A DNA stretch of 64,000 bases from the NCBI GenBank assembly GCA_040285745.1, contig JAUFOR010000004.1:1116001-1180000 (forward strand), read 5' to 3'. Shown here in pieces: positions 4,460 through 51,824 of this stretch. Within the stretch, counting starts at the first letter, position 1. Each line of letters starts with the position of its first letter. The position numbers and the translations under genes were made by a program. Source of the stretch: Barthelona sp. PCE. Its lineage: Eukaryota. The notes beneath the pieces were generated by a model. It ran no database searches. It saw nothing but the letters and a program-made list of their open reading frames with translations, and was not told where the DNA came from.

Positions 4460-7168
4460 ATGAAGACTGTTTTAATTACTGGTGGAGCTGGTAACATTAG
4501 CTATGCACTTGCTTCCCAAGTTGCTTCTGGCTCTCTCCTCGGTGACGAAGAGATTGAGCTTCGTCTTTTTGACATTGCACGTGCTGAGCAAGCACTCCAG
4601 GGCGCCGTCATGGAGCTCGAGGACTGCTGCAGCACTGTCACAACAAAGGTTATTGGTACCATTGATCCTGAAACTGCTTTCAAGAACATTGATGTCGCCA
4701 TCTTTGTTGGTGGATTCCCCCGTCTTCCAGGAATGAAGCGTTCCGATCTTTTGGAGAAAAACGCTGAAATTTTCAAGCAACAGGGTGAATATCTTCAGCT
4801 TTATGCTAAGAACACTTGTCTTTGTGTTGTCATTGCCAACCCCTGCAACACTAACATGACCATCCTTGCCTCCCAGGCTACAAAGATTCCCCTTCGTAAC
4901 TTTACTTCACTTTCACGTTTGGACCTCAACCGTGCTCGTGGTATGATTGCACGTAAGATGAACCGTAATCCCAATGAAGTGCACTCCATGCTCGTCTGGG
5001 GTAACCACTCCTCTACACAGGTTGCCTCTGTTGAGCAAGCTTGGATCATGGAAGATGGAGTCAAGACACCTGTTAATGATATTGTTGATCAAGAATATAT
5101 CAAGAACGATTTCATTGCTGACGTTGCTGGTCGTGGTGCTGCTGTACTTCAGACTCGTGGTGCTTCTTCCGCTACTTCCGCTGCTCGTGCCATCCTTGAT
5201 CACACTCGTGATTGGATGATTGGTACCAAGCCTGGTGAGTTCACATGTATGGGTATCATCACTGATGGTCTCCTCTACGGTCTCCCTGCTGGTATTGCTT
5301 TCTCTCTCCCCGTCGTCTGTCTTGGTAACGGTGAGATTAAGGTTGTTGATAACCTCAAGCTTCCTGATTGGATCCGCGCAAAGCTGAACCTTTCTGCACA
5401 GGAACTTGTTCAGGAGAAGAGCCAAGCTGCTCCTTTCTTAACCGACCGTGATCTCCGTAACTTTACTCTTCAGCACTGCCGTATTGAGGATGTTGAATAC
5501 CTCGGTGTTGTTCCTTTCGAACACAAGCCTATTGTTCTCGCAGACTCCATCTTCAACAAGGATCTTGGTTTTACCATGGCTGAGCGTGAAGCCCTGGGTA
5601 TCACTGCTTTCCTTCCTCCTCGCGTTGAAACCCTTGAGGAACAAGTCCAACGTTGTCACAAGGCTATGGAGATGCTCTGCCCTGAACCTCTTCAGAAGTT
5701 TGTCTATCTTCGTCACTTGAGCGATACAAACGAGAACCTATTTTACGCTGTCCTTCAATCTCGCCCTGTCGAACTTCTTCCTATCGTCTACACACCTATT
5801 GTTGGTGCTGCTTGTGTCAACTGGTCAACCATCTGGCCCAATCACAGCCGTGGTCTCTACCTCAACAAGTCTCACAAGGGTCGTATTCGCTATATCCTCC
5901 AGCAATGGCCCCGTCGTGTAGATGGTATCGTCGTCTCTGATGGTTCCCGTATCCTCGGTCTCGGTGATATTGGTTCAAACGGTATGGGTATTCCCATTGG
6001 AAAGGGTAACCTCATTGTTGCAGGTGGAACTTTTGACCCCGCACACTTCCTTCCCATTATGTTTGATCTTGGTACTCGTACTGAAAAGGTTCGCGATGAT
6101 CCTCTTTACCTTGGTCTCCGTGAAGAGAAACTCTCTGAAGTTGAGATCCTTGAGTTAATGGATGAATTTGTTGATGCCATCTTTACTGTCTGGCCTCACG
6201 TTCTTCTTCAGTGGGAGGATTTCTCTAATGACATCGCTTTCACCCTCCTTAACCGTTACCGTCTTCGTCGTACTTTCAACGATGATATCCAAGGTACTGG
6301 TTGTGTTGTCACTGCTTCTATGATCAACTCCGTTAGGCTTTCTGGTATTGACTGGAAGGATCACAAATTCCTCTTCTTCGGCGCTGGTTCAGCCGGTGTT
6401 GGTGTTGCTGATGTTATTGCTTCTGAACTCGCAAAGCAAGTTGGTATTTCATTTGAGGAAGCCCGTAAGCATTTCTACCTCTTTGACTCCAAGGGTCTTG
6501 TTTCATCTACTCGTGGCGGTCGTGCTCTTGCTCAGCACAAGATTCCTTATGCTCACGGTTTCTTTGACCATGAGTGTCCTACTTTCGAAGAAGCTGTTGA
6601 AATGCTCAAGCCTACAGCTCTTGTTGGTCTGGGAACTATCCCTGATGTCTTCACTAAGGAGATTGTCGAGAGCATGTGTGATTACATGCCCGAGACCACT
6701 CGCCCCATCATCTTTGCTTTATCCAACCCTACTTCAAAGATTGAGATCACTTCCACCAACGCCGTAAACTGGTCAAACGGTCGTGCTATCTATGCTTCTG
6801 GTTCTCCTCAACCCGTTGTTGAACTCAACGGTGTTAAGAACGTTCCTTCACAGGCTAACAACTTCTATGTATTCCCTGGTATTGCATTTGGTGCCGCACT
6901 TTCTGGTGCTTCCACTATTTCTGATGAAGTCTTTGTTATGGCTGCTGAAGCTCTTGCTGATATGGTTACTGAAGAGGACCTTGCTGTTTCTTCCACACTT
7001 CCTGATATTTCCAATATTAAATCCATTTCTGCTGCTATTGCTGCTAGAATTTCTCGCTTTGTTGTTGAGAATGGTCTTTCAACTGTGGATCTCGGATGGC
7101 CAGAGGATGGAAACCTTGATAAGTATCTGGAGATTGCTCTCGAGAGACAATGGTCTCCAAAGTATTAA
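4460..7168 (+). CDS. Malate dehydrogenase - malic enzyme fusion protein (902 aa)
   Basis: aa ~1-328 is a cytosolic-type MDH (ITGGAGNISY, GGFPRLPGMKRSDLL, IANPCNTN, SRLDLNRA, WGNHSSTQ). aa ~355-902 is a malic enzyme (PIVYTP, DGSRILGLGD, GIPIGK, QWEDF, FNDDIQGTG, GAGSAGVG, ALSNPT). There is no stop between them. Confidence 0.95.
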   Translation: MKTVLITGGAGNISYALASQVASGSLLGDEEIELRLFDIARAEQALQGAVMELEDCCSTVTTKVIGTIDPETAFKNIDVAIFVGGFPRLPGMKRSDLLEKNAEIFKQQGEYLQLYAKNTCLCVVIANPCNTNMTILASQATKIPLRNFTSLSRLDLNRARGMIARKMNRNPNEVHSMLVWGNHSSTQVASVEQAWIMEDGVKTPVNDIVDQEYIKNDFIADVAGRGAAVLQTRGASSATSAARAILDHTRDWMIGTKPGEFTCMGIITDGLLYGLPAGIAFSLPVVCLGNGEIKVVDNLKLPDWIRAKLNLSAQELVQEKSQAAPFLTDRDLRNFTLQHCRIEDVEYLGVVPFEHKPIVLADSIFNKDLGFTMAEREALGITAFLPPRVETLEEQVQRCHKAMEMLCPEPLQKFVYLRHLSDTNENLFYAVLQSRPVELLPIVYTPIVGAACVNWSTIWPNHSRGLYLNKSHKGRIRYILQQWPRRVDGIVVSDGSRILGLGDIGSNGMGIPIGKGNLIVAGGTFDPAHFLPIMFDLGTRTEKVRDDPLYLGLREEKLSEVEILELMDEFVDAIFTVWPHVLLQWEDFSNDIAFTLLNRYRLRRTFNDDIQGTGCVVTASMINSVRLSGIDWKDHKFLFFGAGSAGVGVADVIASELAKQVGISFEEARKHFYLFDSKGLVSSTRGGRALAQHKIPYAHGFFDHECPTFEEAVEMLKPTALVGLGTIPDVFTKEIVESMCDYMPETTRPIIFALSNPTSKIEITSTNAVNWSNGRAIYASGSPQPVVELNGVKNVPSQANNFYVFPGIAFGAALSGASTISDEVFVMAAEALADMVTEEDLAVSSTLPDISNIKSISAAIAARISRFVVENGLSTVDLGWPEDGNLDKYLEIALERQWSPKY

Positions 7169-7200
7169 TCAAAAATTGATTAACTGTATTGTTTATTATC

Positions 7201-7821
7201 TTAACACTTAATAAAAGAAAAAAATTGTTCCGGTACACCAAAACAAGCTGCTTGAATTTCTTCAAAGGGTTTTATAGTATATTCCTTCATTTCTTCTGAA
7301 ATAAAACCTCCTGCACAAGTTAAAATGTGTTCATGATGTAAAAGATGATTGAAAACTGCTTGATCAAACTCTTTAAACTTGATTTCATCAACTGATGAGT
7401 GTAATGTTAGTAATTGATTCTCCACATCAAATACTGACCATCCATTGACAACATGTAGTGAGGAATTAGAATAGGACTCTAAATAGCGACGTACAGTTTC
7501 ACGATCCTTAGGTTTAGGGCGCACCTCAATGCCTTCTGGGGTCTGTTTTACAACAAGTTGATCAAAACAAACAACAAAAGTGTCGGGACTAAAAGTGTTA
7601 GAATTTAAAATACTGCCCAGTTTTTCATTTGAGATACGCTTTGTAAGATGCTGTACATCTTCAATGGTGCGGCATGGGGTACTGTTTAAGTCAGTTTCAT
7701 CGAATTCTGAGGAATAAAATTCACCAAGCTGAAATTCAGAGGGTGGTAATAGCTGACCAAACATCTTCTTGATGAATGCTTGGCGCCAGCGTGACGTTGT
7801 TCCAAAACAAATGTTTTTCAT
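7201..7821 (-). CDS. Maf/YhdE-like nucleoside triphosphate pyrophosphatase
   Basis: FGTTSRWR (Maf S-x-S-x-x-R start), EFDE, VVCFDQLVV, PKPKD, CAGGF. Confidence 0.75.
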   Translation of the reverse strand: MKNICFGTTSRWRQAFIKKMFGQLLPPSEFQLGEFYSSEFDETDLNSTPCRTIEDVQHLTKRISNEKLGSILNSNTFSPDTFVVCFDQLVVKQTPEGIEVRPKPKDRETVRRYLESYSNSSLHVVNGWSVFDVENQLLTLHSSVDEIKFKEFDQAVFNHLLHHEHILTCAGGFISEEMKEYTIKPFEEIQAACFGVPEQFFSFIKC

Positions 7822-21701: not shown

Positions 21702-22829
21702 ATGTGTGGGGGAGAGCATTGTAAAGGGCAGGGGAACTGTGAGAATTGTCAAAACTGTACTTGCAAAGATCATGAACACAGCAACACAGAATTAACTGCA
21801 GTAGATATGAATTCCATTCAAAAAGTCCTGAATTCAATGCGGACATACCACAGTGTTTTCATGCAGAAGATATTAAATGAATTTGACCTGTTCCAAGCTC
21901 TTAGCACCGAACATCAACAACGTTACACATCATATGAGGATAGACAGAACCGTTATGTTGATAGCGTTGGTGCTAACCAAGCATTTTTCAGGTTATTATT
22001 ATCATTCACTGATGTATACCTGAACTATGAAGGAAATTTTGAAATAGATGAAAACATTCAGCCAGATCCTGTTCAACATCAAAAGAACCAACAAATATTC
22101 GGGCTTATAGCAAGAGAGTGGAGCGCAGAATATGCAACTGAACGAGATGAATCATTTGGCGTTCTTTTAAATACATTAAAAGAAAATGTACCATGTACTG
22201 ACGATGTTGCAGTATTAATTCCTGGAAGCGCATGCGGAAGACTCGGGTGGGAAGTTTCTAAGCTGGGTTATAATAGTATTATGAATGAATTTGGATTTCA
22301 AATGCAATTATTGAGCAATCTTTTTTTGAATGTTGTTAACAAACCGGAATCTTTAACAATGTACCCGTATATTCACGATGCATGTAACCATGTGTCGCTT
22401 GATACGATGTTTAGGCGTGTTTTAGTCCCTGATCAATGTCCAGTAATGGAGGGGAGTGAAGAAAATGGTGAAATGTCGTTGTTATGTGGAGAATTCGTTG
22501 CTACATTCAGCAAAGAACAGTACAAAGATTCATTTGACTGTATTATGAGTTGTTTTTTCTTAGATACAGCTGTTAATATTTTTGAATACTTTGATACTAT
22601 CGTACATTGTTTAAAACCAGGTGGTATTCTAACCAATATCGGGCCCCTGGCATGGCATTGGAAAGATAAAAGTATCGAATTGACATTCTTAGAAATTAAA
22701 GAGATACTTGAAGGTTATGGTTTCGAATTTTTAGAATTAGATATGAAAGAAACAACATACGCTAGTTGTGAACATAGTCTTATGCCAACCGTATATGAGA
22801 CTGTATACTTTGTTGCTAAACTTAATTAG
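21702..22829 (+). CDS. CARNMT1: Carnosine/protein-histidine N-methyltransferase (N2227 family)
   Basis: AREWS..ER, VLIPG..CGRL, NEF, YPYIH, CFFLDTAVNIFEY, LKPGG..NIGPL.WHW, SIELT. Confidence 0.88.
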   Translation: MCGGEHCKGQGNCENCQNCTCKDHEHSNTELTAVDMNSIQKVLNSMRTYHSVFMQKILNEFDLFQALSTEHQQRYTSYEDRQNRYVDSVGANQAFFRLLLSFTDVYLNYEGNFEIDENIQPDPVQHQKNQQIFGLIAREWSAEYATERDESFGVLLNTLKENVPCTDDVAVLIPGSACGRLGWEVSKLGYNSIMNEFGFQMQLLSNLFLNVVNKPESLTMYPYIHDACNHVSLDTMFRRVLVPDQCPVMEGSEENGEMSLLCGEFVATFSKEQYKDSFDCIMSCFFLDTAVNIFEYFDTIVHCLKPGGILTNIGPLAWHWKDKSIELTFLEIKEILEGYGFEFLELDMKETTYASCEHSLMPTVYETVYFVAKLN

Positions 22830-23604
22830 GATTTTTTTTTCTTTTTTTCCGGTTTTTTTTCCTTTCGATTAATTGTGCAATTTTTGAATGTAAATCATCA
22901 CGCTCATTTTTAACATTGGTATATTTCTTTCTAATATTTTCGTTATCATTGCTTAACTTTCGTACTAAACGTAGTAGTTCTTCATTTCTACGTTGCAAAA
23001 CAACCAGCTGTTTATGAATTTCTTCATTTTCACCATTTCCAACAGTCATGGTCTCCAGGTCTTGAACAACACTTTCCATTTGTTTCATTTGTTGAGTCAT
23101 TTGATTACGATTAGAAACTAACTCAGTTTTTAGTTTTTCATTTTCTTGCTTTAAAGATATAATAATCGCATTGTCTTTTTCTTTTTCAACAAGAAATATG
23201 TTCTTTATCTTGTTAATCTGTTTTAATAAAGTTTGTTGAGTTACAAATGTAGTAATATCTTCGTGTCTAAAAAGAAGCTCTTCATAATTCGGAAATACCT
23301 TTAGTGGACTGTCAATCATGGGGTTCTCGACAAAGAGAAGCCTGAATGCTTGCTTAGAATCGCTTAAATCTGACTTTATGCGAGAGTATTGCGCATTCAA
23401 TTCCTCGATTTGCTGTTTGAGAATCATATTTTCAGCCATTGCAGCTGAACTTTCAGCTAGAAAAGCATCATTGGAGAAATTTGGATCGGTTTTTGCGTTT
23501 AGAACGATTGCTTTTTGTAAAAGCCCTTGTAGTGATGATTTTTCTTGCATTTTATCATCACTAAACCTATCAAAGCTCCCTAGAAAGTACTTAACATCTT
23601 CCAT
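22822..23604 (-). CDS. Coiled-coil protein
   Basis: Heptad-rich 260-aa ORF with a basic tail. Overlaps the CARNMT1 stop by 8 bp. Confidence 0.65.
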   Translation of the reverse strand: MEDVKYFLGSFDRFSDDKMQEKSSLQGLLQKAIVLNAKTDPNFSNDAFLAESSAAMAENMILKQQIEELNAQYSRIKSDLSDSKQAFRLLFVENPMIDSPLKVFPNYEELLFRHEDITTFVTQQTLLKQINKIKNIFLVEKEKDNAIIISLKQENEKLKTELVSNRNQMTQQMKQMESVVQDLETMTVGNGENEEIHKQLVVLQRRNEELLRLVRKLSNDNENIRKKYTNVKNERDDLHSKIAQLIERKKNRKKRKKNPN

Positions 23605-26891: not shown

Positions 26892-29270
26892 ATGTTGTCA
26901 GAAGAGTCATCCAGACACTCAGTGTCTGATAATGATAAGCATAGCATATTAAGTATGGAAGGACTTGATTTTGTTTTTCCATACAGCGCATTTGTTTCTA
27001 TAGATGAAAGTTATGGAGATATGTACTGCTTAACCCCAGCAGAGGACAGGTCAAGCATTCTATTTCAGATGATATCCCTTGGCACAGAGGATAAATCCGT
27101 TAATTGTGAAATAGAGCTGCCTCTCACTGAAATGCCCAAATTAGTAAGGGTTAACCGTGACCACACAATTCTTGCGACAGTTAATGATGATTGTATAAGG
27201 TTGTTTGGCTTGCAAGCAGAGATGGATGTGTTTTTTAAATTTTCTCGTAATCATATAGTATTAGATATGCGATGGCTCTTTAATAATCAATTCTTTTTAG
27301 TCACATCCATTGGAGCAGAGTTATTTTATATTAATTTTTCAAAAAACAAGTTGGTTTCAGAAAAAAAAATCAATTTGCAAGTTGGTTGGCATAAATTTAT
27401 TCCTGATTCACAATGTTTATTCCTTGGGTCTCATGCATCACAGAGCCGTATGAGGCGCAGAACATTCTTTAAAACACATGTTCAGCCGTTATTATTTAAA
27501 GAATCAAATCTAATCAAACTTCGATCGTTTTCTTTGAATTTTAATTCAGAACCAGATTTTAACAAAGATATTTTACTATGTAACGTTGGTGAGAAGCTTG
27601 TTCTTTTCATTAATAATTATATTGAAAAGAAAAATATTCATTGTATCAATGTTTATTTTTTTGATGGGATTTCTTTATATAATTCATTTGAAATTACTCT
27701 TCCAATGGCATTGATCAAGATGTTTGTGATCAATAGAGCTCTAATTGTAATTTTTGGCAATGATGAAGTACAACAAGTTGAGATTTTTGATTTACCCATT
27801 GATAGTGATGGTAGTTTTGTTGTTCCAATGGATAACAATGATGAAATAACAACGCTCACCGCTCTCAATAGCTTCTCTCAGACAGATATGTGCGTTTCTA
27901 CCCAAGTTTTTCGTGATTCAACATTTCCTTTTAGTGGTAACAGTATACTAACTGGGTTTCCATTTGTTTATGCCTTACATGGTGTCAGTGCTTTTGGGTT
28001 TATTCCGGTAGGAGAATGTAGAGTTTGGAGTGTAGGTTTTAATTATCGTCATATGGCTACATTTTGGCCTGTGTTAAATCAAGAAGAACCTCATCTTGAA
28101 TCTGATCGATATTTCCTATTTGATGGTTCATCAAAAGATATTACAGTTCCCCTTAATGGATCTCCATTCACAACTTTATTAGTATTTCTCAAATTTTTAT
28201 GCAGGCGTAATGAAATTTCACATATTACAGTCAAATTAGCATTGATGTTTGTACGTAATTTAATCCTTGTTGGTGCTCCACTTACGCTTCAACTCCAAAT
28301 TTTTAATCTTTTTGTTAGAACTCAGGTTGTTAATGCCATCTCTTTAGAACGTCAAAGTAAGGCTGTTTTAGTTCGTGAAAAGACTAGAGTGAACACATAT
28401 CAACGCATGTTAGAGATTGTTTTACCTCATACACGTTATCTAGAACGTACCTTCTTTACTCCACAACAGACAACTATGAAACCTGTTCGTGTATTATCAC
28501 CTGTCCTATCACCCCATTTGGTGAAACACATCAAGAGAAGTTCTATGTTGAATCCTTGGGAGGTACCTCCCTTCTTCAGAATTAGTGAAGAACAAGTTGT
28601 ATTAAGCATATTTGAACCTTTAATTGAAACCCGTACACCAATGTTATGTGAAAGTTTCTTAGTTTATGTATCCCTATTAGTCCAACATCGCGTAATAATT
28701 ACATCAGATCTAGTTGAAAATACATTGATAAAAACGTTATGGACTTATGATGAGCCCAATCTATTACGTATTCTTTTACAATCCAGGTTGATTAGAGACA
28801 CTGAGAAGAATACAATTTTGTTAATGAATACTATCTTTGATAATATTCGTTTTAGAGAATTTATTCAAAATTGTGGGGATATGATTTGTAGAATGACAGA
28901 TACAGAAGATTCTTTGATCTTTTTGAACAAGATTGCACCTCATGAAAGTATTTTATTGAGTAGATTGAAAGACGATTTGAAATTAAACGAATTAACTCAA
29001 GTTCAACCGGCTAAAAAGAACTTTTTAGAAACTAAATTACGAAAATTAAGCCTTAATGAATGTTATATTTATTATGATTTGATAGATAGATTAGGATGTG
29101 AACCTATAAGTAGTATTCGAAAAAATTTTTTCCAATATAAGAAGAATTGGACCAGCAATGATTTAGAAATTCAAGATGCAATTGAAAATGATACATTTAA
29201 GATTGATAATCCAGAAAATGTTTTAAAAAAAACTGTTGCAATTGAGAAAAATATTAATGTTTTTCTTTAA
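26892..29270 (+). CDS. RMC1: Regulator of MON1-CCZ1 (Mic1/C18orf8-like)
   Basis: N-terminal beta-propeller-like region. C-terminal FLVYVSLL..HRV..LIKTL..LLRILLQSRLIRD resembles the Mic1 domain. Confidence 0.65.
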   Translation: MLSEESSRHSVSDNDKHSILSMEGLDFVFPYSAFVSIDESYGDMYCLTPAEDRSSILFQMISLGTEDKSVNCEIELPLTEMPKLVRVNRDHTILATVNDDCIRLFGLQAEMDVFFKFSRNHIVLDMRWLFNNQFFLVTSIGAELFYINFSKNKLVSEKKINLQVGWHKFIPDSQCLFLGSHASQSRMRRRTFFKTHVQPLLFKESNLIKLRSFSLNFNSEPDFNKDILLCNVGEKLVLFINNYIEKKNIHCINVYFFDGISLYNSFEITLPMALIKMFVINRALIVIFGNDEVQQVEIFDLPIDSDGSFVVPMDNNDEITTLTALNSFSQTDMCVSTQVFRDSTFPFSGNSILTGFPFVYALHGVSAFGFIPVGECRVWSVGFNYRHMATFWPVLNQEEPHLESDRYFLFDGSSKDITVPLNGSPFTTLLVFLKFLCRRNEISHITVKLALMFVRNLILVGAPLTLQLQIFNLFVRTQVVNAISLERQSKAVLVREKTRVNTYQRMLEIVLPHTRYLERTFFTPQQTTMKPVRVLSPVLSPHLVKHIKRSSMLNPWEVPPFFRISEEQVVLSIFEPLIETRTPMLCESFLVYVSLLVQHRVIITSDLVENTLIKTLWTYDEPNLLRILLQSRLIRDTEKNTILLMNTIFDNIRFREFIQNCGDMICRMTDTEDSLIFLNKIAPHESILLSRLKDDLKLNELTQVQPAKKNFLETKLRKLSLNECYIYYDLIDRLGCEPISSIRKNFFQYKKNWTSNDLEIQDAIENDTFKIDNPENVLKKTVAIEKNINVFL

Positions 29271-29754
29271 GTCGATCACAACCAAAATAACGTCTTAAAA
29301 GTGTCAAATTGGCTATTGCTGTTGGCCAATGTGTTCTATGTGTACCTAATTTGGATTCCTCTTCTCCAATACGCTCAAGAACTTCATCAGCCGTTGTGTT
29401 AGAGTTTAGCAGCATTTCTATGGTTTGTTGAGATGGAGATATATTGTCCACACTGTCATTTTCCTGTTGTAAAATTGAACGAGCCCGATTTTCCGGGTTT
29501 AGTAAATAACGAAATGCTCTAATTTTCTGTTCATTCTCGCTCTGATTCTTTGACGCCAATATTGAATCAGCAACGGTGCTCATATCGATCTGATCAAGTG
29601 CTGGAGTTAGTCCAAGAATTGAAAATGGATCATGCACGGTGAAATAATCTGGATCACCACATATACAGTCTTCTGGTAAACATTCCTTTGGTGTGTTGAT
29701 TGAAGCTCTAAAAACACCCACTTGACAGGCAGATTTGCCACGAAAGATGTTCAT
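29254..29754 (-). CDS. Degenerate HscB/Jac1/Hsc20-like co-chaperone (J-domain lacks HPD)
   Basis: Cys cluster, DPFSILGL..QID, IRAFRYLLNPENRARSIL (~INxAYxTLxxPxxRAxYLL), and C-terminal AIANLTLLRRYF (~HscB oligomerisation helix). Confidence 0.6.
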   Translation of the reverse strand: MNIFRGKSACQVGVFRASINTPKECLPEDCICGDPDYFTVHDPFSILGLTPALDQIDMSTVADSILASKNQSENEQKIRAFRYLLNPENRARSILQQENDSVDNISPSQQTIEMLLNSNTTADEVLERIGEEESKLGTHRTHWPTAIANLTLLRRYFGCDRLKEKH

Positions 29755-29916
29755 ATAGGTTAGAATTGATAAACAACAGGTTTTCTATGTATTGGTCTCG
29801 TGAGTTACATGTATCATTAGGCATACTACAACAATTAAGATATACTATATGTGAAAAACAATATGGTTGATTGTAAAAAATATTACTACCTTTCTCCTAC
29901 ATTTTTACAGGTAGAA

Positions 29917-30255
29917 ATGGGCAAAAAGGGAGGAAAAGAAGTACAACTGGCAAAAGAAGAAGAAATTATTCATCATAGAACAGAAGAAAATGAAGTTGAA
30001 AATGAATTGCTCCAAGATATTGATATGAACACCATAGATAGAAAGTTGAAGGGGCTGCATCGGCTATTTAACGAACAGGCAGCTGGAAGTAGACTTGAAA
30101 CTGAACAAATTTTTTCAGAACTACCACAACCTATTAAAGCACAGGATATTGAGCTATTAATCAGTCAGTTACTACGAGAGAGCGACACACAGGTGCTCAG
30201 GGAGGCCAAATTTATCAACGTGTTACATTCTGAGTTGAATGCAAAACACGAATAA
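29917..30255 (+). CDS. Small hypothetical protein
   Basis: ATG at 29917 (MGKKGGK) after a pyrimidine-rich leader. 112 aa. Confidence 0.55.
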   Translation: MGKKGGKEVQLAKEEEIIHHRTEENEVENELLQDIDMNTIDRKLKGLHRLFNEQAAGSRLETEQIFSELPQPIKAQDIELLISQLLRESDTQVLREAKFINVLHSELNAKHE

Positions 30256-30608
30256 CAAATATTTTTTATAAACACCAAAAAGATCTCAAATCGGGTGGTT
30301 GATTAATAGTCCTGTTTGAAGCGAGTTATATACCATATCCGTTATGTTGTTTTGTAATTTTTTGAATCACAGATTTTTTTAATAATTTGCGTTAGTCAGG
30401 TATATGTCTCTTGCATTTAAAAATTTTTTCATTCAACTTTATGTGCTAACCATGGATTTTAGCAGCGTAGTAGTATGTGTTAGGTTACGTATGATTATTT
30501 ACAGTTAACAAGCGAATTTTTTATTACATAATTAGTTGAATTTGTGATGATTATTAATGGGAATGGTTGTGATATGATGTAGATACAGTAAATTAATGTT
30601 GAAAATCG

Positions 30609-30800
30609 TTATACTAGTTCACAAGAAGAAGTTATTTCACGATTTTGCTTTTTAAAGTCCTTAAAATAAGATGGGCTAATTGCATCAATGGAATAAGAGT
30701 TTTTTTCATCGTTTTTAAGCGTGTAAGTTACGAAAAAAGCAATTCCGACAAGTGAAATTAATATAACAAAGACAAAAGCTATTTGATGTAGTTGAGTCAT
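30609..30800 (-). CDS. Possible small single-pass membrane protein
   Basis: 63-aa ORF with one N-terminal hydrophobic helix and a pyrimidine-rich upstream leader. Confidence 0.35.
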   Translation of the reverse strand: MTQLHQIAFVFVILISLVGIAFFVTYTLKNDEKNSYSIDAISPSYFKDFKKQNREITSSCELV

Positions 30801-31174
30801 TCAAGCAGGATTTTTGGTTAACAAAGAGTGGAAGCGGAGAAGTAAATGGAGAAAAATTTGGAAATGAACCTAGAATCCACTATTTTCATTATTGCTAAAT
30901 TTTTAGCTTTCTGAAGTTGTTAAACGTATTATTGACTTTAAATATAAAGCCTTAACATTTTTTATGTTTGAAAAAAAGAAGATTTTTCAATTTTTGGAAG
31001 AGCATTTGAAGTCCATAGTAAGAATACCAAAATGTAAATAAGAACAACGGCTTTCTCAACGATTCTCATTTGTCATAAGATTGAACATTAAAGAAATATG
31101 CCAGAATCAATCAGTAAACACAAATCAATGCTATCTCTTTTTACACTTGTTTCATCACGGCAAACAACTTGCAT

Positions 31175-33352
31175 ATGCCTCGTATCCGTAAATTCGAGGA
31201 TGACCTTATCATTGGGGCCTTTCCCGAGGGGCAAATTATTTTTGAAGGTCAGGGTGTTAGAATGGTCAAAAGCAGAGAAGACACTCGTTTAAATAATCTC
31301 ATTGATGCTGTTGATGGGGAAGAATTTTGTGGATATGTTGAAGAAACGTGTGAAACACTTCGGTATTACTACAAGCGAAAAGCTGGAGAAGGATATATGA
31401 TCGTTAAACAGCATTTTAGCGAAAATGATCGATTAACTGATCTTTAAATCCTGTATTTCAACGAAATTAACAGTGATGAACACACCAACAGAAAGATTCG
31501 TTTCCCTTTTGATGATTTGGATAATTTACAAAAATTCGTATCGAGCGAATTTGTTCCATTAGATGAAAACCACATTTTTTTTTCTATTACAGAGGTTGAT
31601 GAAGAACACCAAAATGGAGAATCGACTCATTGTTTCATTCTCAATATCTTAACAGAGCAGTACAGATGCCTTGGAGAGTACGAGTATTACTCTATCAGCA
31701 ACAATTGTTCCGTTGAATATGTATTGATGAGAAATTATGGAAATGATTTTTCAATATTTTACTACAATTTCTGCGCAGATGATATGGATGAGGCTCATGA
31801 GCCGGATATCGTGCAGCTAGAAGGTGTCCATAATCAAAACTGTATAGGATGTTACAATGCTGATTGTGTTTGTTTTTATGTTAATGGCGAGATATTAGAA
31901 GAATTGATCATTTTTGACCGTCAACGAAACCGTGTTGATCTATTGGAAAGATTCCCACAGTTATTAGAGTTGAAAATGTCCTACTGTTCTTATTTTGCCT
32001 TGTTCACATTGACACAAGATGTATTTTCTGCGCTTTTAAATGATGGCTCAATTTGCACTGTTGTTCATATTGAAAACGGGGAGCTTAAGACGACAACCGG
32101 TGATGTGGGCAGTAATATTGTCCATTGTGATGATTTAAAACACATTGACTTGGCAAATTCTTTTCATAATGAACGCCAGTTTTTTGGAACTTGTGATACA
32201 ACGTGTGTTTATGGTCCTATAAAGCTTAGAAAAGTCGATAATGAGGTGATTCGCTTGCAAAATATTTGGCCTCACAGAGTTATGTATGATGGGACAGTAC
32301 ATTTTGCAGATAGCAATCGGAAAAGACAGTGTTACTTTTACTTCAAAGAAAAAAGAATCGTCACACATAAAAGTGTTATGACTAACGATAGTTTCATGTT
32401 TGAAAGGAATTACAGTGAACTATCGATGCACCCGGTTGAGGAAGAGTATTTCTTTATGATTGCACAGTGTAATAGAAGACAAGGTGCTTCAGAAATAGTT
32501 AAAATACACTGGGAAGGTTCAGAATCAAAACCAATAATAACTCCTTTTGAAAATAATGGCTTTTTGAATTATAATAGCTTAGTTCTTGGGTTACCATTTT
32601 TTATTGATTATAATGAAAATGTTTGTCAAGGTTATCTTGGTAATACAAAAGTTTTGGAGCTTCCACCAAATGAGTACATAAATGATTGCAAGCCTTCAGT
32701 CACTGGAAGTTCTGTGTGTGTTAGTTGTACTAATTCAACACATTTTTTACAATTGCTGATCAATAATAATGATGTTGAGGTTCAAAAGCACATCACTTTT
32801 CATCATGGCGATGATGTTTCGAATGTAGTCTTCTGTCATCATCCATTAACAGATACAGCTGACCACCAGCTCTTTGTTACATATAAATACAACAATGATG
32901 GTGAGGAACAGTATATGCATTGTTTAGATTGGTCAACAGGAAATTTTTTGGAACCCGTTTTGATATATAAATATTTAAATGATGGTGAAATGGATGAAGA
33001 ATTCTTGGAAGGTAACTGTTTCTTTAAGTTCATAGGTGATTCGTATATTCAAGTAGAACAAGGTATTAATAAGGTATCCATTGTTAATGGCGTTATTGAA
33101 ATGCGATTTTTTACAAATACTATTTTACCAAATATTGGCAACGATATTCGCAGCTTAAATCTACCTAACAACGTTGTTCAGGAAGTTATTTACGAAGAAG
33201 AAACCAAGACAATGGTGTTGAAAACATACAACGTTGAGGAAGACCCAGAATCAAAAAATCCCACTGTGGAAAGGTTCCACCTTCCTTCGTTCCTGGCGGA
33301 GGCGTCCATCGTTGAGTATCATATGCCCAATTATCATGCAATAAATAAATAA
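31175..33352 (+). pseudogene. Family member (~725 aa) interrupted by a single in-frame TAA at 31445-31447
   Basis: ORFs 31169-31447 and 31517-33352 are in the same frame. The read-through RLTDL*ILYFNEINSDEHT aligns with the paralog's ILLEFNILFFNDIMSDDHT. Confidence 0.75.
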
Positions 33353-46380: not shown

Positions 46381-49300
46381 TTACCAATGATCATTGGGAG
46401 TATTATCAGGAGCATAAAGTTTAGTAAACTTAGAAGAAGCAGTCATTGCAAACATAACACGTGTTGGATGCCAAATACAATGAGTTCGAACACTTTCAAA
46501 ATGGGGACTAATGGTGGTTAACAAAGAACCATCAGTATTGAAAGTGTATATCTGATCATCAAATGACATTATTCCTAGAGGACCACGGTTGTGAATCGCC
46601 ATATGTGTTAAACGTTTGCTTCTGTTACCAGGAAGTTGTTGTATCTGTTCAGATGTGAAGATAGTTTCAGTATCCGAATTGAGTCCTAGTTTAAAGACTG
46701 ATCCATCGTTAAGAGCGGTATATACATACGCAGGATCTTCTACTTGTTGACACAATGATACTACAGCTGAACCCTTTTTGGAACCATTATAAAGTCGCAT
46801 GACACGACCTTCCCGTAGATCTGTGAAAAGAATGGTACCTCGGGTTGTTCCGCAATAGACAATGTTCGGATCTGCTGTGTTCAGCTTGATAGTGGTAATT
46901 CCTTCTTTTGCAGCATGTTGTGCAACAGAAAATTGTCCAAGAGTCGTTTGACTATTTAGATCAAAAATTCTAAAATAATGACTGCGTTCTTCACAAACAG
47001 CAAATGTTCCATGCTCTTCGCAGAAATCACTAAGAGTTGGACGTCTTTGAACACTAGGGAACAAGGTAGACGAAGAGGAAAGATAATTATAGATTGGGTC
47101 ATCAAGCAAAGAACAGCTAAAAACATGACGGTGACCACCCAGAACGTGAGGGTTGTTGAAAATATCAAGAGTACCACCGCTACGCATGCAAAGCAACAAT
47201 CCGCTTGGGAAATTAGAGTTGCCATAAAACATTTTTTCAACATTTGTGACTGGAATCTTATTCTGTATGTTTCCCTCCATCCAATTCCAAACATCAACAG
47301 ATTTATACTGATTTAAGAACGTAAAATCACGATAAGGATGAAAGATAATATTTTTAGGTGGTTCATCTCCAATCATACCTATTAAATACAACTGTTGGTA
47401 ATGTGAAAATGTATCATAATCACGTTGAGTACTAATGAGCATACGTTTGTTTCGTTTAACAGTGAGCTGGTGTTGCATGTGTTTTGGATTCGTTTCATCA
47501 ATAGGACCACGATAGTATTTCTCGTTGGCTAAAGGTTGGAACACAAATTCTTCAATGGATGACTGTAATGATTGTGCTTCATGTGAAACATTGCTTGTGA
47601 AAGATCCGTTCTTGATATCGAGCTCAGCCATGGAATTGTTTAATGTTGTAAGACTGGATAGATCAGTGGCGCTTGACCAACTGCGTGGTAAACTCTGTTC
47701 ATTTTCAGGAACGCTGTACAAGTTATGATTAAGAACATCCTCACTAACAATTTTAAGAAACTCTTCAGCTGAATAACCACTCAACTTCTTGAATATAGCA
47801 TTTGCAGCCTTTCTCAACGGTGAGAAACTATCTTTGGTCATTGTGATCAGGAAAGACCAAATCTGTGCAGTAACTTTCGTTATCTCACTTGTATCATTAG
47901 CAATATCGTGATTATCGATGAAAAGATCGATTGCATAACGGAAACTGCTAAGAAAAGTAGTAATAACAGTCTGTAACGCACATAAAAACTCCTTACGTAC
48001 TTGGATAGAGCAATCATTGCAACATAAACAGATTACGTACACGTTCTTCAAACATGTAAGCTGGAATTCAGCCTCGCGGTTACTTGGAATGCCTTCAAAA
48101 CAACCTGAGAAAGTACGACTCCTTGTATTAAATTCATGACTACCTTGTGGAGAAACTGGAGAAATTGGGGATAAAAGAGGTGAAGTAAAACTCTGAAATG
48201 AAGCAGCTGAACCTCCACCAATGTGCTGACCAGCTGAAAACAATGACACTCGTGAAAAATTACGCACATATAAACACACTAAAGCACGTACTATAGGATT
48301 ACGATAAGAAAGAAAAGAAGCAAGGATGTCATTGACATCTAAATTCATGAGTTCAATCTTTGCTGCAGGAATTTCTGCTAGTGAAGCAAGTAACATAATA
48401 AGCCAAGAAACATACATATCGTAATCCTCGATAGACTGATTATACTTTGCGAGAAACTGCTGTTTCGTCATGCTATTGATGTGAGGGATGTTGTCTACAA
48501 CGGCTTTAATCAAAGAAAGAACATTTTGCACAAGGGCACAAGAAAAAATCCATCTATTGGAGTTGTTATTCGTATGTTTAACCATTTGTGAAAGAATAAC
48601 ACCTGCCTTGGCACGGTCTCTGAAAATCTGTGCACTACGAACATCACCACGTAGGAATAAAAGAAACGTACGATAGTTTTGTTGATTCATATTTGTAAGA
48701 CCACTAATACATGCAATAGGATCATATAAAGTGAAAAGTAACCACAGGTGAAGGATCAAATCACCACTTTCGTGATGAGACTGTAGCATCTTGACCAAAA
48801 ATTGAAAAAATCCAACAGAAACAACATCTTCAATGAAGTCACGCCCAATATCACAATATTTAACAAGTATTTTCAATGCACGTTTACGAAAATCAGTGCT
48901 CAGCATGATTTGAAGTAATAAAGGTAATTCAATTGGTGGAGCTCGTCGCTCAATTGAAGTTAACATACCAAATGATGTAGTACCTAATTTAGATGTCTCA
49001 TTCAACCAGTTTTCTAAATAAATCAGTTGATGATCCCAAAAAGGACATACTGGGTAAGTAATATTACCAGTCGAAAGTGAATCAATTCTTAAAAGGAATT
49101 GTTCAATTTCCCAATCAAATCTTAACCAAAGGTAATGATTAAACGTACAAGGTAAAACAGGGTAACTAACTGGTTTAAAACCAAAAACACGAAATATTCG
49201 TTCTGCTAAAAGAAAATGTCGAAACAAACTTGCCATTAATATATCTTGTCGAAATAGTTCATAAAATTGATCATATTCCAAAATATCCCATGCTATAGCA

Positions 49301-50346
49301 TCAGTAATGGCTGTAAGTAGCCAAAACAATTCACCAATAACAGATTTACGTACAGTAGGAGTGTGAGAAACATCTTGAATAAATTTGACTGCTAAAGCTT
49401 CAAGATTGGGAGGAATGAGCAAGAAATTGGAAATAGCAAACAATAAATAAAACTTAATAGGTGTGGTAAGAATAGCAGTAAAAGAATCATGAGGAAAACG
49501 AGCATCAAAAATTAAATGAAAATCTTCCGAACAAGCACCAAAAAAATAGAACTTCTTCTTTTGAACGTTACTACCATGATTTAATTGCAAATACTGTTGT
49601 TCATCTTCTTCATATTGCTTAATAACATTAATTAAATGAGCAGAGCCTGGACAGTCAAAAACAAAAACACAATTATTACATACTTTACGCAGTACATCAT
49701 TGAAAGGAAACTTAAAATACGTTTTTTTTCCACCAGTGGTGCTGTTTTTAAAAACATGAATTTGTCCATCATTGACAAGAGGTGGTACACCATGACCATT
49801 ATAATGAAATAATCCACGATGGTTCTGTGCACACCGTTTCAGATGTGAACATAAATAAAGCAAGTCATCACGAGAGGGATCACACTTATCCTTGAATTGA
49901 CACTTGTTCGATGCTCTAGTTTTGTATTGTGACTTTAAATTACTGGTAATGAGATCCATGGCCTCGATTGGGAGGTACTCATGAGGAAGAATCCATGAAT
50001 GAGATGAAGCAAAAAGTTTAAAAGATTGATCTGTACGTTTGCGTGTCTGTTTCTTGTTACGAAAATGGTTGAAACCAACACCTTCGCCTTTATCCATTCT
50101 CTCTAATTCCTCACGCTCAAACTCATCAAATTGCATACGTTCATAAGGATTCTCATTAAACTGTCCCATTCGAGACGGATGCCCTGGTGGAGGATCACCG
50201 ATGTTCAGGCACATGCACAAACTAATGGCACTTGTTCGTATTTTAGATTTTGGAAGTAAGGAATATTTCCTTGCTTTTACCATGTCTGTATGTGCATGAA
50301 ATTCTGTTTCTTCGTAAAAAAGAACTGGCTCATCACTTTTTAACAT
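46381..50346 (-). CDS. RPTOR: Raptor/Kog1 (TORC1 scaffold)
   Basis: CMCLNIGDPP, LFHYNGHGVP, VFDC, P.D.FTA.LTTPIK, GEL.WLLTAITDAIAW, LFRQDILMASLFRHFLLAERI, then HEAT and WD40 regions. Confidence 0.95.
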   Translation of the reverse strand: MLKSDEPVLFYEETEFHAHTDMVKARKYSLLPKSKIRTSAISLCMCLNIGDPPPGHPSRMGQFNENPYERMQFDEFEREELERMDKGEGVGFNHFRNKKQTRKRTDQSFKLFASSHSWILPHEYLPIEAMDLITSNLKSQYKTRASNKCQFKDKCDPSRDDLLYLCSHLKRCAQNHRGLFHYNGHGVPPLVNDGQIHVFKNSTTGGKKTYFKFPFNDVLRKVCNNCVFVFDCPGSAHLINVIKQYEEDEQQYLQLNHGSNVQKKKFYFFGACSEDFHLIFDARFPHDSFTAILTTPIKFYLLFAISNFLLIPPNLEALAVKFIQDVSHTPTVRKSVIGELFWLLTAITDAIAWDILEYDQFYELFRQDILMASLFRHFLLAERIFRVFGFKPVSYPVLPCTFNHYLWLRFDWEIEQFLLRIDSLSTGNITYPVCPFWDHQLIYLENWLNETSKLGTTSFGMLTSIERRAPPIELPLLLQIMLSTDFRKRALKILVKYCDIGRDFIEDVVSVGFFQFLVKMLQSHHESGDLILHLWLLFTLYDPIACISGLTNMNQQNYRTFLLFLRGDVRSAQIFRDRAKAGVILSQMVKHTNNNSNRWIFSCALVQNVLSLIKAVVDNIPHINSMTKQQFLAKYNQSIEDYDMYVSWLIMLLASLAEIPAAKIELMNLDVNDILASFLSYRNPIVRALVCLYVRNFSRVSLFSAGQHIGGGSAASFQSFTSPLLSPISPVSPQGSHEFNTRSRTFSGCFEGIPSNREAEFQLTCLKNVYVICLCCNDCSIQVRKEFLCALQTVITTFLSSFRYAIDLFIDNHDIANDTSEITKVTAQIWSFLITMTKDSFSPLRKAANAIFKKLSGYSAEEFLKIVSEDVLNHNLYSVPENEQSLPRSWSSATDLSSLTTLNNSMAELDIKNGSFTSNVSHEAQSLQSSIEEFVFQPLANEKYYRGPIDETNPKHMQHQLTVKRNKRMLISTQRDYDTFSHYQQLYLIGMIGDEPPKNIIFHPYRDFTFLNQYKSVDVWNWMEGNIQNKIPVTNVEKMFYGNSNFPSGLLLCMRSGGTLDIFNNPHVLGGHRHVFSCSLLDDPIYNYLSSSSTLFPSVQRRPTLSDFCEEHGTFAVCEERSHYFRIFDLNSQTTLGQFSVAQHAAKEGITTIKLNTADPNIVYCGTTRGTILFTDLREGRVMRLYNGSKKGSAVVSLCQQVEDPAYVYTALNDGSVFKLGLNSDTETIFTSEQIQQLPGNRSKRLTHMAIHNRGPLGIMSFDDQIYTFNTDGSLLTTISPHFESVRTHCIWHPTRVMFAMTASSKFTKLYAPDNTPNDHW

Positions 50347-50420: not shown

Positions 50421-51824
50421 TTATTCAATGTGTGTTGTTTCGAATACATAGGCTTGTGATATCAACGTGGAAATATCATTAATATCAATTCCCTTTAGTA
50501 AGTCTGGTAAGGTTTGAAAACAGGAAACTGCAAACTCTATACTATTAGATTTCATGAGATTCGCGTTTGGCACTTTGTCAGCAACCTCATCAGCATCAAA
50601 ACTTAATGTTACATGATGAGGAAAACGACGATTTCCATTTTCTAACAAATTTTCTTCACAAAATAATTTTTTAAAGCTTAATATAATTGTAATGATAACA
50701 AAAAGATGCAAATTCAACCATTTAGTTGTATCCTTAAATTGTGGACTGATTAATCTGCTAAAATAACAACCCCACAATTCAACAATCATTTTAATATTAA
50801 ATTCTCTTGCTAATAAACAGTTAAACCATCTGAATGAGTACATCAATGGGTCTAATCCCAGATTATTAAATAAATGATTGTGTAACTCAGGATCAATGAT
50901 TTCCAAATAGTGTTCAATAAAAGTCATTTGTTTCTTAATACCAGGATAACCTTCAGTGAAAAAATCTTGAATGGGATCAATAAAAGTAGTATATGAATGA
51001 TATATATCACTCTCTATATCAAACAAATAATCTAAAAATTGATGCATTGACAAGAGCGGTTGATTACAACTATCATCTAAAGAAATAGGTGTATTAATAC
51101 AATAAACACCATTATCACGGACTATAAGTGAAAGACACGTATCTATGTCATCAAAATACTCTTGCAAATAAACATACAAAAACGGACACAGCAATACATC
51201 CATACCTTGTACGTAACCACATGCAGGATGCCTGATAGACCATAGATAAAGTATACGTGTAAAAACAAGCTCAATAATGTTATATTCAGAACCCATATCA
51301 TTAGGTCTGTTAGTTAAAACAGGATGCTCTAATAATTCTGGGTCTATGTTAGAAATATTTATGGTACAATGAAACAATGGTATATTTGGTTGTGTTCTTG
51401 GCATATCCTTTGCAATTTGTTCAATAATACGTGTGAGAACAGTTGAGTTTCTTTTAATAGATGTAGTAAAATGATCATTAACCATTCTCCAATATTTGTT
51501 TCGTTTATGCCTTAATTGTGTGTTAAAATCTACACCTGGTGATATCAGACCCGTTGCTATGCGCCACAACGTAGGTATATGTTCAAAACAATTACCGTCA
51601 AATAGAATTTCAGAAATATCATCAAGAGAAAAATTCTCATCCTCGACAATCGATTTGATCCTTATCTTTCTTGACATCTCAGAACCTTTTCTTAGCTCCA
51701 TGGCACTTATTCCTGGGGAAGAAGGAGGTTTCATAATGCCATTTGAGATGCTGGAAACTGAAGATATTGAATCTGTAGAATTTGACCTTCCTCTATTAAA
51801 AAAACGTGATAAAAAGCCCGACAT
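50421..51824 (-). CDS. TBC-domain Rab GTPase-activating protein (Gyp1/TBC1D22-like)
   Basis: QIAKDMPRTQP (R finger), RILYLWSIRHPACGYVQGM (Q finger), FRWFNCLLAREF. Confidence 0.9.
   Translation of the reverse strand: MSGFLSRFFNRGRSNSTDSISSVSSISNGIMKPPSSPGISAMELRKGSEMSRKIRIKSIVEDENFSLDDISEILFDGNCFEHIPTLWRIATGLISPGVDFNTQLRHKRNKYWRMVNDHFTTSIKRNSTVLTRIIEQIAKDMPRTQPNIPLFHCTINISNIDPELLEHPVLTNRPNDMGSEYNIIELVFTRILYLWSIRHPACGYVQGMDVLLCPFLYVYLQEYFDDIDTCLSLIVRDNGVYCINTPISLDDSCNQPLLSMHQFLDYLFDIESDIYHSYTTFIDPIQDFFTEGYPGIKKQMTFIEHYLEIIDPELHNHLFNNLGLDPLMYSFRWFNCLLAREFNIKMIVELWGCYFSRLISPQFKDTTKWLNLHLFVIITIILSFKKLFCEENLLENGNRRFPHHVTLSFDADEVADKVPNANLMKSNSIEFAVSCFQTLPDLLKGIDINDISTLISQAYVFETTHIE

Follow-up and report, generated by a model that had tools for sequence, protein, structure and literature searches.

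Malate dehydrogenase and malic enzyme fused in a single gene of a compact protist genome: a candidate cytosolic malate shunt in one polypeptide

Introduction

Can the last two steps of the malate shunt be carried by a single gene, and if so, what would its product do and how unusual is it? The question is raised by a 64-kb stretch of contig JAUFOR010000004.1 (assembly GCA_040285745.1, Barthelona sp. PCE), here called the window, which means the whole stretch of DNA that was analysed. Near its beginning, one open reading frame (ORF) runs without interruption through a malate dehydrogenase (MDH) and a malic enzyme (ME). This single-polypeptide MDH-ME is a true fusion of two genes, carried by an anaerobic protist whose genome is compact and poor in introns. 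An initial annotation, made from the letters of the sequence, had placed the ORF at 4460..7168, exactly where the ORF listing has it (plus strand, 902 aa, ATG start), and had read the protein as a possible transhydrogenase. Below, the two enzymes, their probable cofactors, the competing explanations, the junction between the halves and the distribution of the architecture are considered in turn.

Two complete enzymes in one reading frame

The 902-aa ORF consists of an MDH (aa 1-328), a connector (aa 329-352) and an ME (aa 353-902). Four Pfam domains, all well over their cut-offs, follow one another along the protein: Ldh_1_N (aa 4-148, E 9e-30, 104 bits), Ldh_1_C (aa 153-324, E 7e-30, 105 bits), malic (aa 422-601, E 8e-56, 189 bits) and Malic_M (aa 610-866, E 5e-80, 269 bits). 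Solved enzymes align end to end with each half, and chance cannot explain a 902-codon open frame in DNA of 35% guanine plus cytosine (GC) with such E-values. Pfam, NCBIfam and the alignments agree with the initial annotation that a full MDH and a full large-type ME are joined in one polypeptide. The motifs on which it had relied are all present, namely GFPR (R88), LFDI (D38), VYTP (Y444), IGK (K515), EDF (E586/D587), DD (D608/D609), DSKG (D676-G679) and HK (H693/K694).

The N-terminal half belongs to the NCBIfam family MalateDH-SF1 (TIGR01759), with 399.4 bits against a cut-off of 345.65 over aa 3-323, and falls short of the strict eukaryotic cytosolic equivalog MDH_euk_cyt (TIGR01758; 350.3 bits, cut-off 470.4). 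Plant NADP-MDH (254 bits, cut-off 598) and protist lactate dehydrogenase (LDH; 285 bits, cut-off 486) were considered as identities and rejected. R88, R94, D155, R158 and H183 are intact together with the GxGxxG region, and these five residues are invariant across the alignment of MDH relatives; 67 of the 77 columns conserved at >=95% among 120 relatives are retained. The identification as MDH rather than LDH, first made from the Arg of the GFPR loop, is consistent with both the invariance of R88 and the failure of the protist LDH model. An AlphaFold2 (AF2) model of aa 1-360 has a mean predicted local distance difference test score (pLDDT) of 93.7 and a predicted template modelling score (pTM) of 0.91. 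In Foldseek comparisons it superposes on cytosolic MDHs with target-normalised TM-scores (TMt) of 0.94-0.96 and root-mean-square deviations (rmsd) of 1.1-1.6 Å (TMt 0.96 and 1.1-1.3 Å for human MDH1 and for 4uup, a reconstructed trichomonad MDH). Human MDH1 (7rm9, 5mdh) and 4uup share with the MDH half the fold, 44-46% identity, every catalytic residue and the NAD-type Asp. Unlike MDH1, the fusion lies below the MDH_euk_cyt cut-off, stands on a long branch, has a C-terminal extension that is predicted to be ordered and carries a whole ME.

In MDH, an acidic residue (Asp) at the end of strand beta-2 selects NAD over NADP. The segment LRLFDI of the MDH half aligns with LVLLDI of the human cytosolic NAD-dependent enzyme, and Asp38 is the matching Asp. 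By this residue rule the MDH half probably uses NAD, which agrees with the preference for NAD(H) that the initial annotation had read from the Asp of LFDI. In the AF2 model, strand beta-1 begins at residue 2 and leaves no room for an N-terminal presequence, so that the absence of an organellar presequence noted at the outset is borne out.

The C-terminal half matches NCBIfam PRK13529 (NF010052) with 556 bits against a cut-off of 326, its aa 357-902 covering profile positions 19-558 of 564. Conservation was assessed in 118 of 149 ME representatives, those with lengths of 480-700 aa, and 34 of the 38 columns conserved at >=95% are retained. The catalytic Tyr and Lys and the metal ligands recognised in the initial annotation (Y444, K515, E586, D587 and D608/D609) all stand at such columns; we take them to be Tyr112, Lys183, Glu255, Asp256 and Asp279 of the animal enzyme. 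Malolactic enzyme was rejected as an identity (418.5 bits, NF041582 cut-off 850).

As to the cofactor of this half, the best-scoring solved relatives include plant C4 malic enzymes, presumably NADP-dependent, although their PDB titles read only 'Malic enzyme'. The segment FDSKG...QHKIPYAH of the fusion aligns with VDSKG...PFKKPWAH of plant NADP-MEs and with VDTKG...AHKK of the Trypanosoma cruzi enzyme, and S677, K678 and K694 occupy the positions of Ser346, Lys347 and Lys362. These three residues determine the NADP+ selectivity of ME, as established by mutagenesis (Hsieh et al., 2011, PMC3183043). The dual-cofactor human ME has Lys/Tyr/Gln and the Ascaris NAD enzyme Ile/Asp/His at these sites, and Lys362 is the key determinant, K362Q raising the Km for NADP more than 140-fold (PMC3183043). 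The residue rules thus point to NADP as the probable cofactor of the ME half, in line with the NADP-like character that had been ascribed to DSKG and the downstream HK.

A putative NADH-to-NADPH malate shunt

With these cofactors, the N-terminal NAD-dependent MDH would reduce oxaloacetate (OAA) with NADH to L-malate, and the C-terminal NADP-type ME would convert the malate to pyruvate and CO2, yielding NADPH. The net reaction would be OAA + NADH + NADP+ -> pyruvate + CO2 + NAD+ + NADPH, and the fusion would comprise the last two steps of the malate shunt, phosphoenolpyruvate (PEP) -> OAA -> malate -> pyruvate. Two active enzymes would be held in one cytosolic polypeptide, which on pathway logic would keep both activities equimolar and adjacent, with flux running from OAA to pyruvate. 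We assign a probability of about 0.65 to this reading, that is, to a genuine fusion of two active enzymes acting as an NADH-to-NADPH malate shunt in the cytosol.

Koendjbiharie et al. (2020, PMC8100219) describe the malate shunt as a transhydrogenation from NADH to NADPH and note that fermentative protists, too, may use it. The shunt of Clostridium thermocellum described there comprises the same two reactions and the same proposed net transfer of reducing equivalents. In that bacterium, however, PEP carboxykinase, MDH and ME are separate proteins and the flux has been shown experimentally, whereas that of the fusion is predicted. The transhydrogenase role that the initial annotation had proposed stands in its logic, which is that of the known shunt (PMC8100219), and the putative cofactor residues fit it. 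The structure predictions do not support a fixed interface for channelling.

Evidence against the shunt and competing explanations

Several observations weigh against the NADH-to-NADPH shunt, and the first group concerns the cofactor of the ME. The residue equivalent to position 314 is Ser644, not Glu as in animal NADP-ME; Lys694 is preceded by a loop with one residue more than in the plant and T. cruzi enzymes; and the nearest unfused relative, a 545-aa protein (P0124), has DSEG in place of DSKG. The cofactor rules were set on animal and Ascaris enzymes and their transfer to this protein may be uncertain, since calls of this kind are often wrong beyond the calibrated clade; several bacterial relatives are moreover labelled 'NAD-dependent malic enzyme' in their source records. 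These points favour a real fusion whose ME uses NAD+ or both cofactors, in which case the protein would be a redox-neutral converter of OAA to pyruvate or an NAD-linked malate oxidiser. Such an enzyme is unlikely, though the likeliest of the alternatives: Ser677, Lys678 and Lys694 all fit the NADP set, including the Lys that is key to selectivity (PMC3183043), and the kinship with plant C4 enzymes points in the same direction. Because P0124 has Glu at the Lys347-equivalent position, cofactor preference may differ between the fused and the unfused MEs.

A second alternative keeps both cofactors of the proposed shunt and reverses its direction: the protein would work mainly from pyruvate + CO2 + NADPH through malate to OAA + NADH, serving anaplerosis or aspartate synthesis. 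Both reactions are reversible, and anaerobes in CO2-rich sediment could carboxylate pyruvate. General enzymology makes this direction very unlikely, however, in that the MDH equilibrium lies strongly towards OAA reduction and carboxylation by ME is usually kinetically poor; the shunt direction, moreover, is the one documented in vivo (PMC8100219).

The second group of adverse observations concerns the MDH half. In a 54-row tree it stands on a branch of 1.36, against a median of 0.21, and has no supported placement. It is altered at 10 columns conserved at >=95% (L37F, P59T, E93K, K121L, V125I, A129C, P189A, D190S, Q223A and S263C), and P189A/D190S sit just past the catalytic His183. The long branch and the 10 changes at near-invariant positions imply that altered kinetics or specificity of the MDH are possible. 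Taken further, they would suit a protein in which one half, the MDH more likely than the ME, is a catalytically dead scaffold or regulator and only one enzyme works. We consider such a loss scarcely probable: neither the catalytic and substrate-binding residues (R88, R94, D155, R158 and H183) nor the GxGxxG region has changed, the model superposes on solved MDHs with an rmsd of 1.1-1.6 Å, and a strong codon bias is equal across the halves. The changes and the long branch of the MDH half may instead be a co-adaptation to the fusion.

The last group bears on channelling. Folding the protein as two chains with ESMFold2 brought no part of the MDH body into confident contact with the ME body, and the full-length model in the ESM Atlas has a pTM of 0.62; for both reasons, a fixed channelling geometry or tunnel is unsupported.

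The junction between the halves

At the junction only the frame of the fusion is open, stops being plentiful in the two others. The fusion lacks a Met between residues 264 and 373, and a separate ME would have no start, because the next Met after 264 is M373, which already lies within the conserved N-terminus of ME. The sole homopolymer of at least five bases in the ORF is at 4717, far from the junction.

The codons of the gene tell the same story on both sides of the junction. The effective number of codons (Nc) is 35.8, the lowest of the 37 ORFs compared in the window (39.2-53.3 in the other 36), and the two halves taken separately give 35.5 and 36.3. All Arg, Leu and Gly codons of the connector are those preferred by the gene (three CGT, three CTC/CTT and one GGT), while in the rest of the window TTA makes up 37% of Leu and AGA 32% of Arg codons. 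The 72-nt connector has 46% GC, against 37% in the upstream spacer. This pattern looks like that of a translated, probably highly expressed single gene, not that of a former spacer.

An assembly or polishing artefact that merged adjacent MDH and ME genes through a lost stop or an indel is the least probable of the explanations considered. Some intergenic spacers are indeed only a few bases long, and one error could merge neighbours. Against this, a separate ME would lack a start codon, the junction has no homopolymer nearby and is open in one frame only, and the connector has coding-type codons, 46% GC and a predicted ordered structure. RNA of Barthelona sp. PAP020 has, moreover, independently yielded an assembly with this architecture (Yazaki et al., 2020, PMC7542792).

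Two further ideas about the locus were discarded. A foreign island, suggested by a hump in GC (0.454 at 4-6 kb), is unnecessary since expression-type codon bias explains the hump, and the ME half branches with metamonads. An alternative genetic code of the hexamitid or ciliate type does not agree with the stop codons of the 37 ORFs, which are TAA in 29, TAG in 5 and TGA in 3.

The connector

Human MDH1 ends opposite residue 328, and residues 359-902 of the fusion pair with the unfused ME P0124 (50% identity) from its position 7 to its C-terminus, which places the connector at about aa 329-352. By alignment it is 24 aa long, close to the roughly 25 aa first estimated, and neither stand-alone MDH nor stand-alone ME has a homologue of it.

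Structure prediction suggests that this segment is not the free tether that the word 'linker' in the initial annotation implied, and that it is an ordered, packed extension instead. In the AF2 model, residues 339-341 form a strand and 342-345 a turn; pLDDT is 88 at residues 331-340 and 81 at 341-350, and it falls below 50 only at 353-360. Folded by ESMFold2 as two separate chains, aa 1-335 and 336-902 made confident contacts only through residues 336-352, which lie against MDH residues 145-146, 193, 254-261, 266-272 and 286-299. The contact score was 0.68, against 0.00 for the best of three controls; the mark used is reached by 51 of 78 solved complexes and 2 of 108 mismatched pairs (39 of 65 and 2 of 126 for eukaryotes). 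Runs agreed in >=95% of contacts, and partner pLDDT was >=89. As the two chains follow each other directly in one polypeptide, these contacts represent predicted intramolecular packing; the model supports, and does not show, packing of the connector on the MDH domain. Residue 193 of the predicted docking patch adjoins the altered pair P189A/D190S.

Solved MDHs align over only about 323-334 of the 360 columns, and the extension is therefore without counterpart in them. The linker probably continues the MDH fold beyond its C-terminus as an ordered extension, which is predicted to add a strand or turn to the C-terminal sheet and is followed by a short hinge (about aa 353-358), and the connector would probably hold MDH and ME close to each other. 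A more far-reaching idea is that the ordered connector makes a near-rigid MDH/ME pair, that the contacts of the MDH dimer and of the ME dimer or tetramer cross-link such pairs into a higher-order assembly, that this assembly is a truly channelling NADH-to-NADPH metabolon and the main source of NADPH in an anaerobe with a mitochondrial organelle almost stripped of metabolism, and that the fast evolution of the MDH is an adaptation to it. This we put forward as a speculation that is quite unlikely to hold as a whole.

Rarity of the architecture and earlier reports

Scanned exhaustively with phmmer, 1.84 billion representatives gave 14,519 matches at E <=0.001. Among the best 150 of these, which were inspected, only the fusion's own protein covers both halves; the best stretch of the remaining 149 lies within query residues 323-902. 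None of 28 long or multi-stretch ME matches (all 9 listed matches of at least 800 aa and 19 further long or top matches) carries an Ldh domain according to Pfam, and their extensions are thioredoxin, transglutaminase, Ras, GGDEF, a second ME or nothing. Six of the 28 are among 14 rows in which two or three stretches matched, and the eight rows left unscanned cannot hold both enzymes because they are 597 aa or less. In a word-indexed search, all four domains were found only in the fusion itself (1 of 120 listed), and a search of long proteins with MDH words gave three non-self matches, fused to hydrolase or helicase domains and none to ME. No fused cluster occurred among the ESM Atlas matches shown. 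Eighty metagenome loci comprised 78 with ME only, 2 with MDH only and none with both, even as neighbours; within the 64-kb window itself there is no second MDH or ME. The initial annotation had proposed surveying the domain architecture, and the survey finds it very rare, with only the fusion itself among the matches listed.

The novelty that the initial annotation implied does not hold, because natural MDH-ME fusions were published in 2020 for Barthelona sp. PAP020 (PMC7542792). Two fusions were found in the PAP020 transcriptome, neither with a predicted mitochondrial targeting signal, one containing a cytosolic-type and the other a bacterial-type MDH, and a cytosolic pyruvate metabolism was proposed for them (Yazaki et al., 2020, PMC7542792). 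Full-text searching of the literature on natural MDH-ME fusions turned up only this paper. Barthelonid and skoliomonad genomes have since been described (Williams et al., 2024, PMC11316075), and in the main text of that report the terms MDH, malate and NADPH do not occur. The MDH-ME architecture is thus extremely rare, yet already described in barthelonids, and is not a new kind.

Going by their description (PMC7542792), the PAP020 fusions resemble the one in the window in that MDH precedes ME in one polypeptide from a metamonad lineage and in that one of them has a cytosolic-type MDH, and also in the lack of a mitochondrial targeting signal. In the window, too, MDH lies N-terminal to ME and no N-terminal targeting extension precedes it. 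The PAP020 proteins come from a transcriptome assembly, the present fusion from an ORF in genomic DNA on a long contig, and the PAP020 sequences did not appear among the matches of the searches. The second PAP020 fusion, with the bacterial-type MDH, has no counterpart in this window. The passages of Yazaki et al. on the fusions treat localisation, not cofactors, channelling or the connector (PMC7542792). What is added here is confirmation at the level of the genome, a cofactor call at the level of residues, a count of rarity and the finding of unfused sister MEs, as well as the acceleration of the MDH half and the predicted order of the connector.

Joining ME to a second metabolic domain is also known from the MaeB-type fusions with a phosphotransacetylase (PTA)-like domain (PRK12861). 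In contrast to the present protein, in these a small-type ME is followed by the PTA-like domain, and the fusion is not a PRK12861 member because it reaches 50.6 bits against a cut-off of 1178.

Phylogeny of the two halves

The initial annotation had also proposed separate phylogenies, which succeeded for the ME half and left the MDH half unplaced. The ME tree, a quick IQ-TREE analysis of 84 rows (84 of 392 proteins) with support from the Shimodaira-Hasegawa-like approximate likelihood ratio test (SH-aLRT) only, places the ME half as sister to the unfused P0004 ('Eukaryota sp. GEM-RC1') and P0124 with SH-aLRT 99, and this trio adjoins a clade including Carpediemonas with SH-aLRT 87. By the resemblance of the names we infer that 'Eukaryota sp. 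GEM-RC1' is the 'Skoliomonas sp. GEM-RC' of PMC11316075. Taken by itself, the placement fits the BaSk clade without proving a barthelonid. Considered with the MDH tree and the very tight gene packing of the window, it makes a barthelonid-like metamonad the probable host.

P0004, P0124 and the Carpediemonas protein P0060 share 50-51% identity with the fusion across the ME half, and the unfused sister MEs also share a C-terminal QW.P.Y and the HK.PYAH motif. They differ in being 545 aa long and having no MDH domain, and P0124 also in its DSEG. As both sister MEs are unfused, the fusion either arose after the split from the sister lineage or was undone there.

For the MDH half, the 54-row tree indicates a position outside a well-supported bacterial clade. 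A trichomonad origin, suggested by 4uup as the best PDB match, was rejected, as 4uup is a reconstructed ancestor and the T. vaginalis enzyme 4uuo scores 272 bits, the same as pig MDH.

Features and surroundings of the fusion gene

The features of the fusion gene are listed in Table 1. The window around it is densely filled with intron-free ORFs on both strands and has a GC content of about 35%. Between the stop of the fusion and a convergent Maf-like gene (7201-7821, minus strand) there are 32 bp (7169-7200); two ORFs are 2 bp apart at 20474/20477, and those at 21702-22829 (plus) and 22822-23604 (minus) overlap by 8 bp. Pfam, at the thresholds used, is blank for 18 of the 36 other window ORFs of >=200 aa (7 of 12 and 11 of 24), and scans for tRNA genes and Rfam families found neither in the 64 kb; together, the blank ORFs and empty scans point to a very divergent proteome.

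Table 1. Positions, within the window, of the fusion gene and of its parts and diagnostic residues
Feature	Positions	Strand	Basis or remarks
MDH-ME fusion ORF	4460..7168	+	902 codons plus stop; ATG; four Pfam domains, single frame
MDH half, cytosolic type, aa 1-328	4460..5443	+	Pfam, NCBIfam, alignment, AF2 model, conserved columns
Asp38 (GAC), end of strand beta-2, putatively NAD-type	4571..4573	+	Alignment with human MDH1
Substrate loop R88-R94 (PRLPGMKR)	4721..4741	+	Aligned with PRREGMER of human MDH1
Connector, aa 329-352 (DRDLRNFTLQHCRIEDVEYLGVVP)	5444..5515	+	Alignment boundaries, codons, AF2, ESMFold2
ME half, large type, aa 353-902	5516..7165	+	Pfam, NCBIfam, alignment, tree
Putative NADP-type signature D676-S677-K678...R685...K694	6485..6541	+	Equivalents of Asp345, Ser346, Lys347, Arg354 and Lys362

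Some other genes of the window were also recognised. The ORF at 46381-50346 (minus) encodes a protein of 1321 aa that is probably the TOR-complex subunit Raptor, judging by its Raptor N-terminal caspase-like domain (90 bits) and the WD40 repeats at its C-terminus; a gene for a RabGAP-TBC protein (50421-51824) adjoins it. At 21702-22826 (plus), a match to carnosine N-methyltransferase (CARME, PF07942) of 227 bits suggests such an enzyme. The 2.2 kb at 29270-31517 hold no ORF of >=200 aa, only ORFs of 166, 134 and 92 aa, which is unusual for so dense a window; the stretch could harbour small genes, a gene with an intron or some non-coding element.

Biological significance

The fusion marks a lineage-specific invention whose closest ME relatives are unfused. 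Natural fusions of consecutive enzymes provide the cleanest test cases for channelling and for the balance between NADH and NADPH, and this one would offer the whole redox transfer of the malate shunt in one recombinant protein that can be split as a control.

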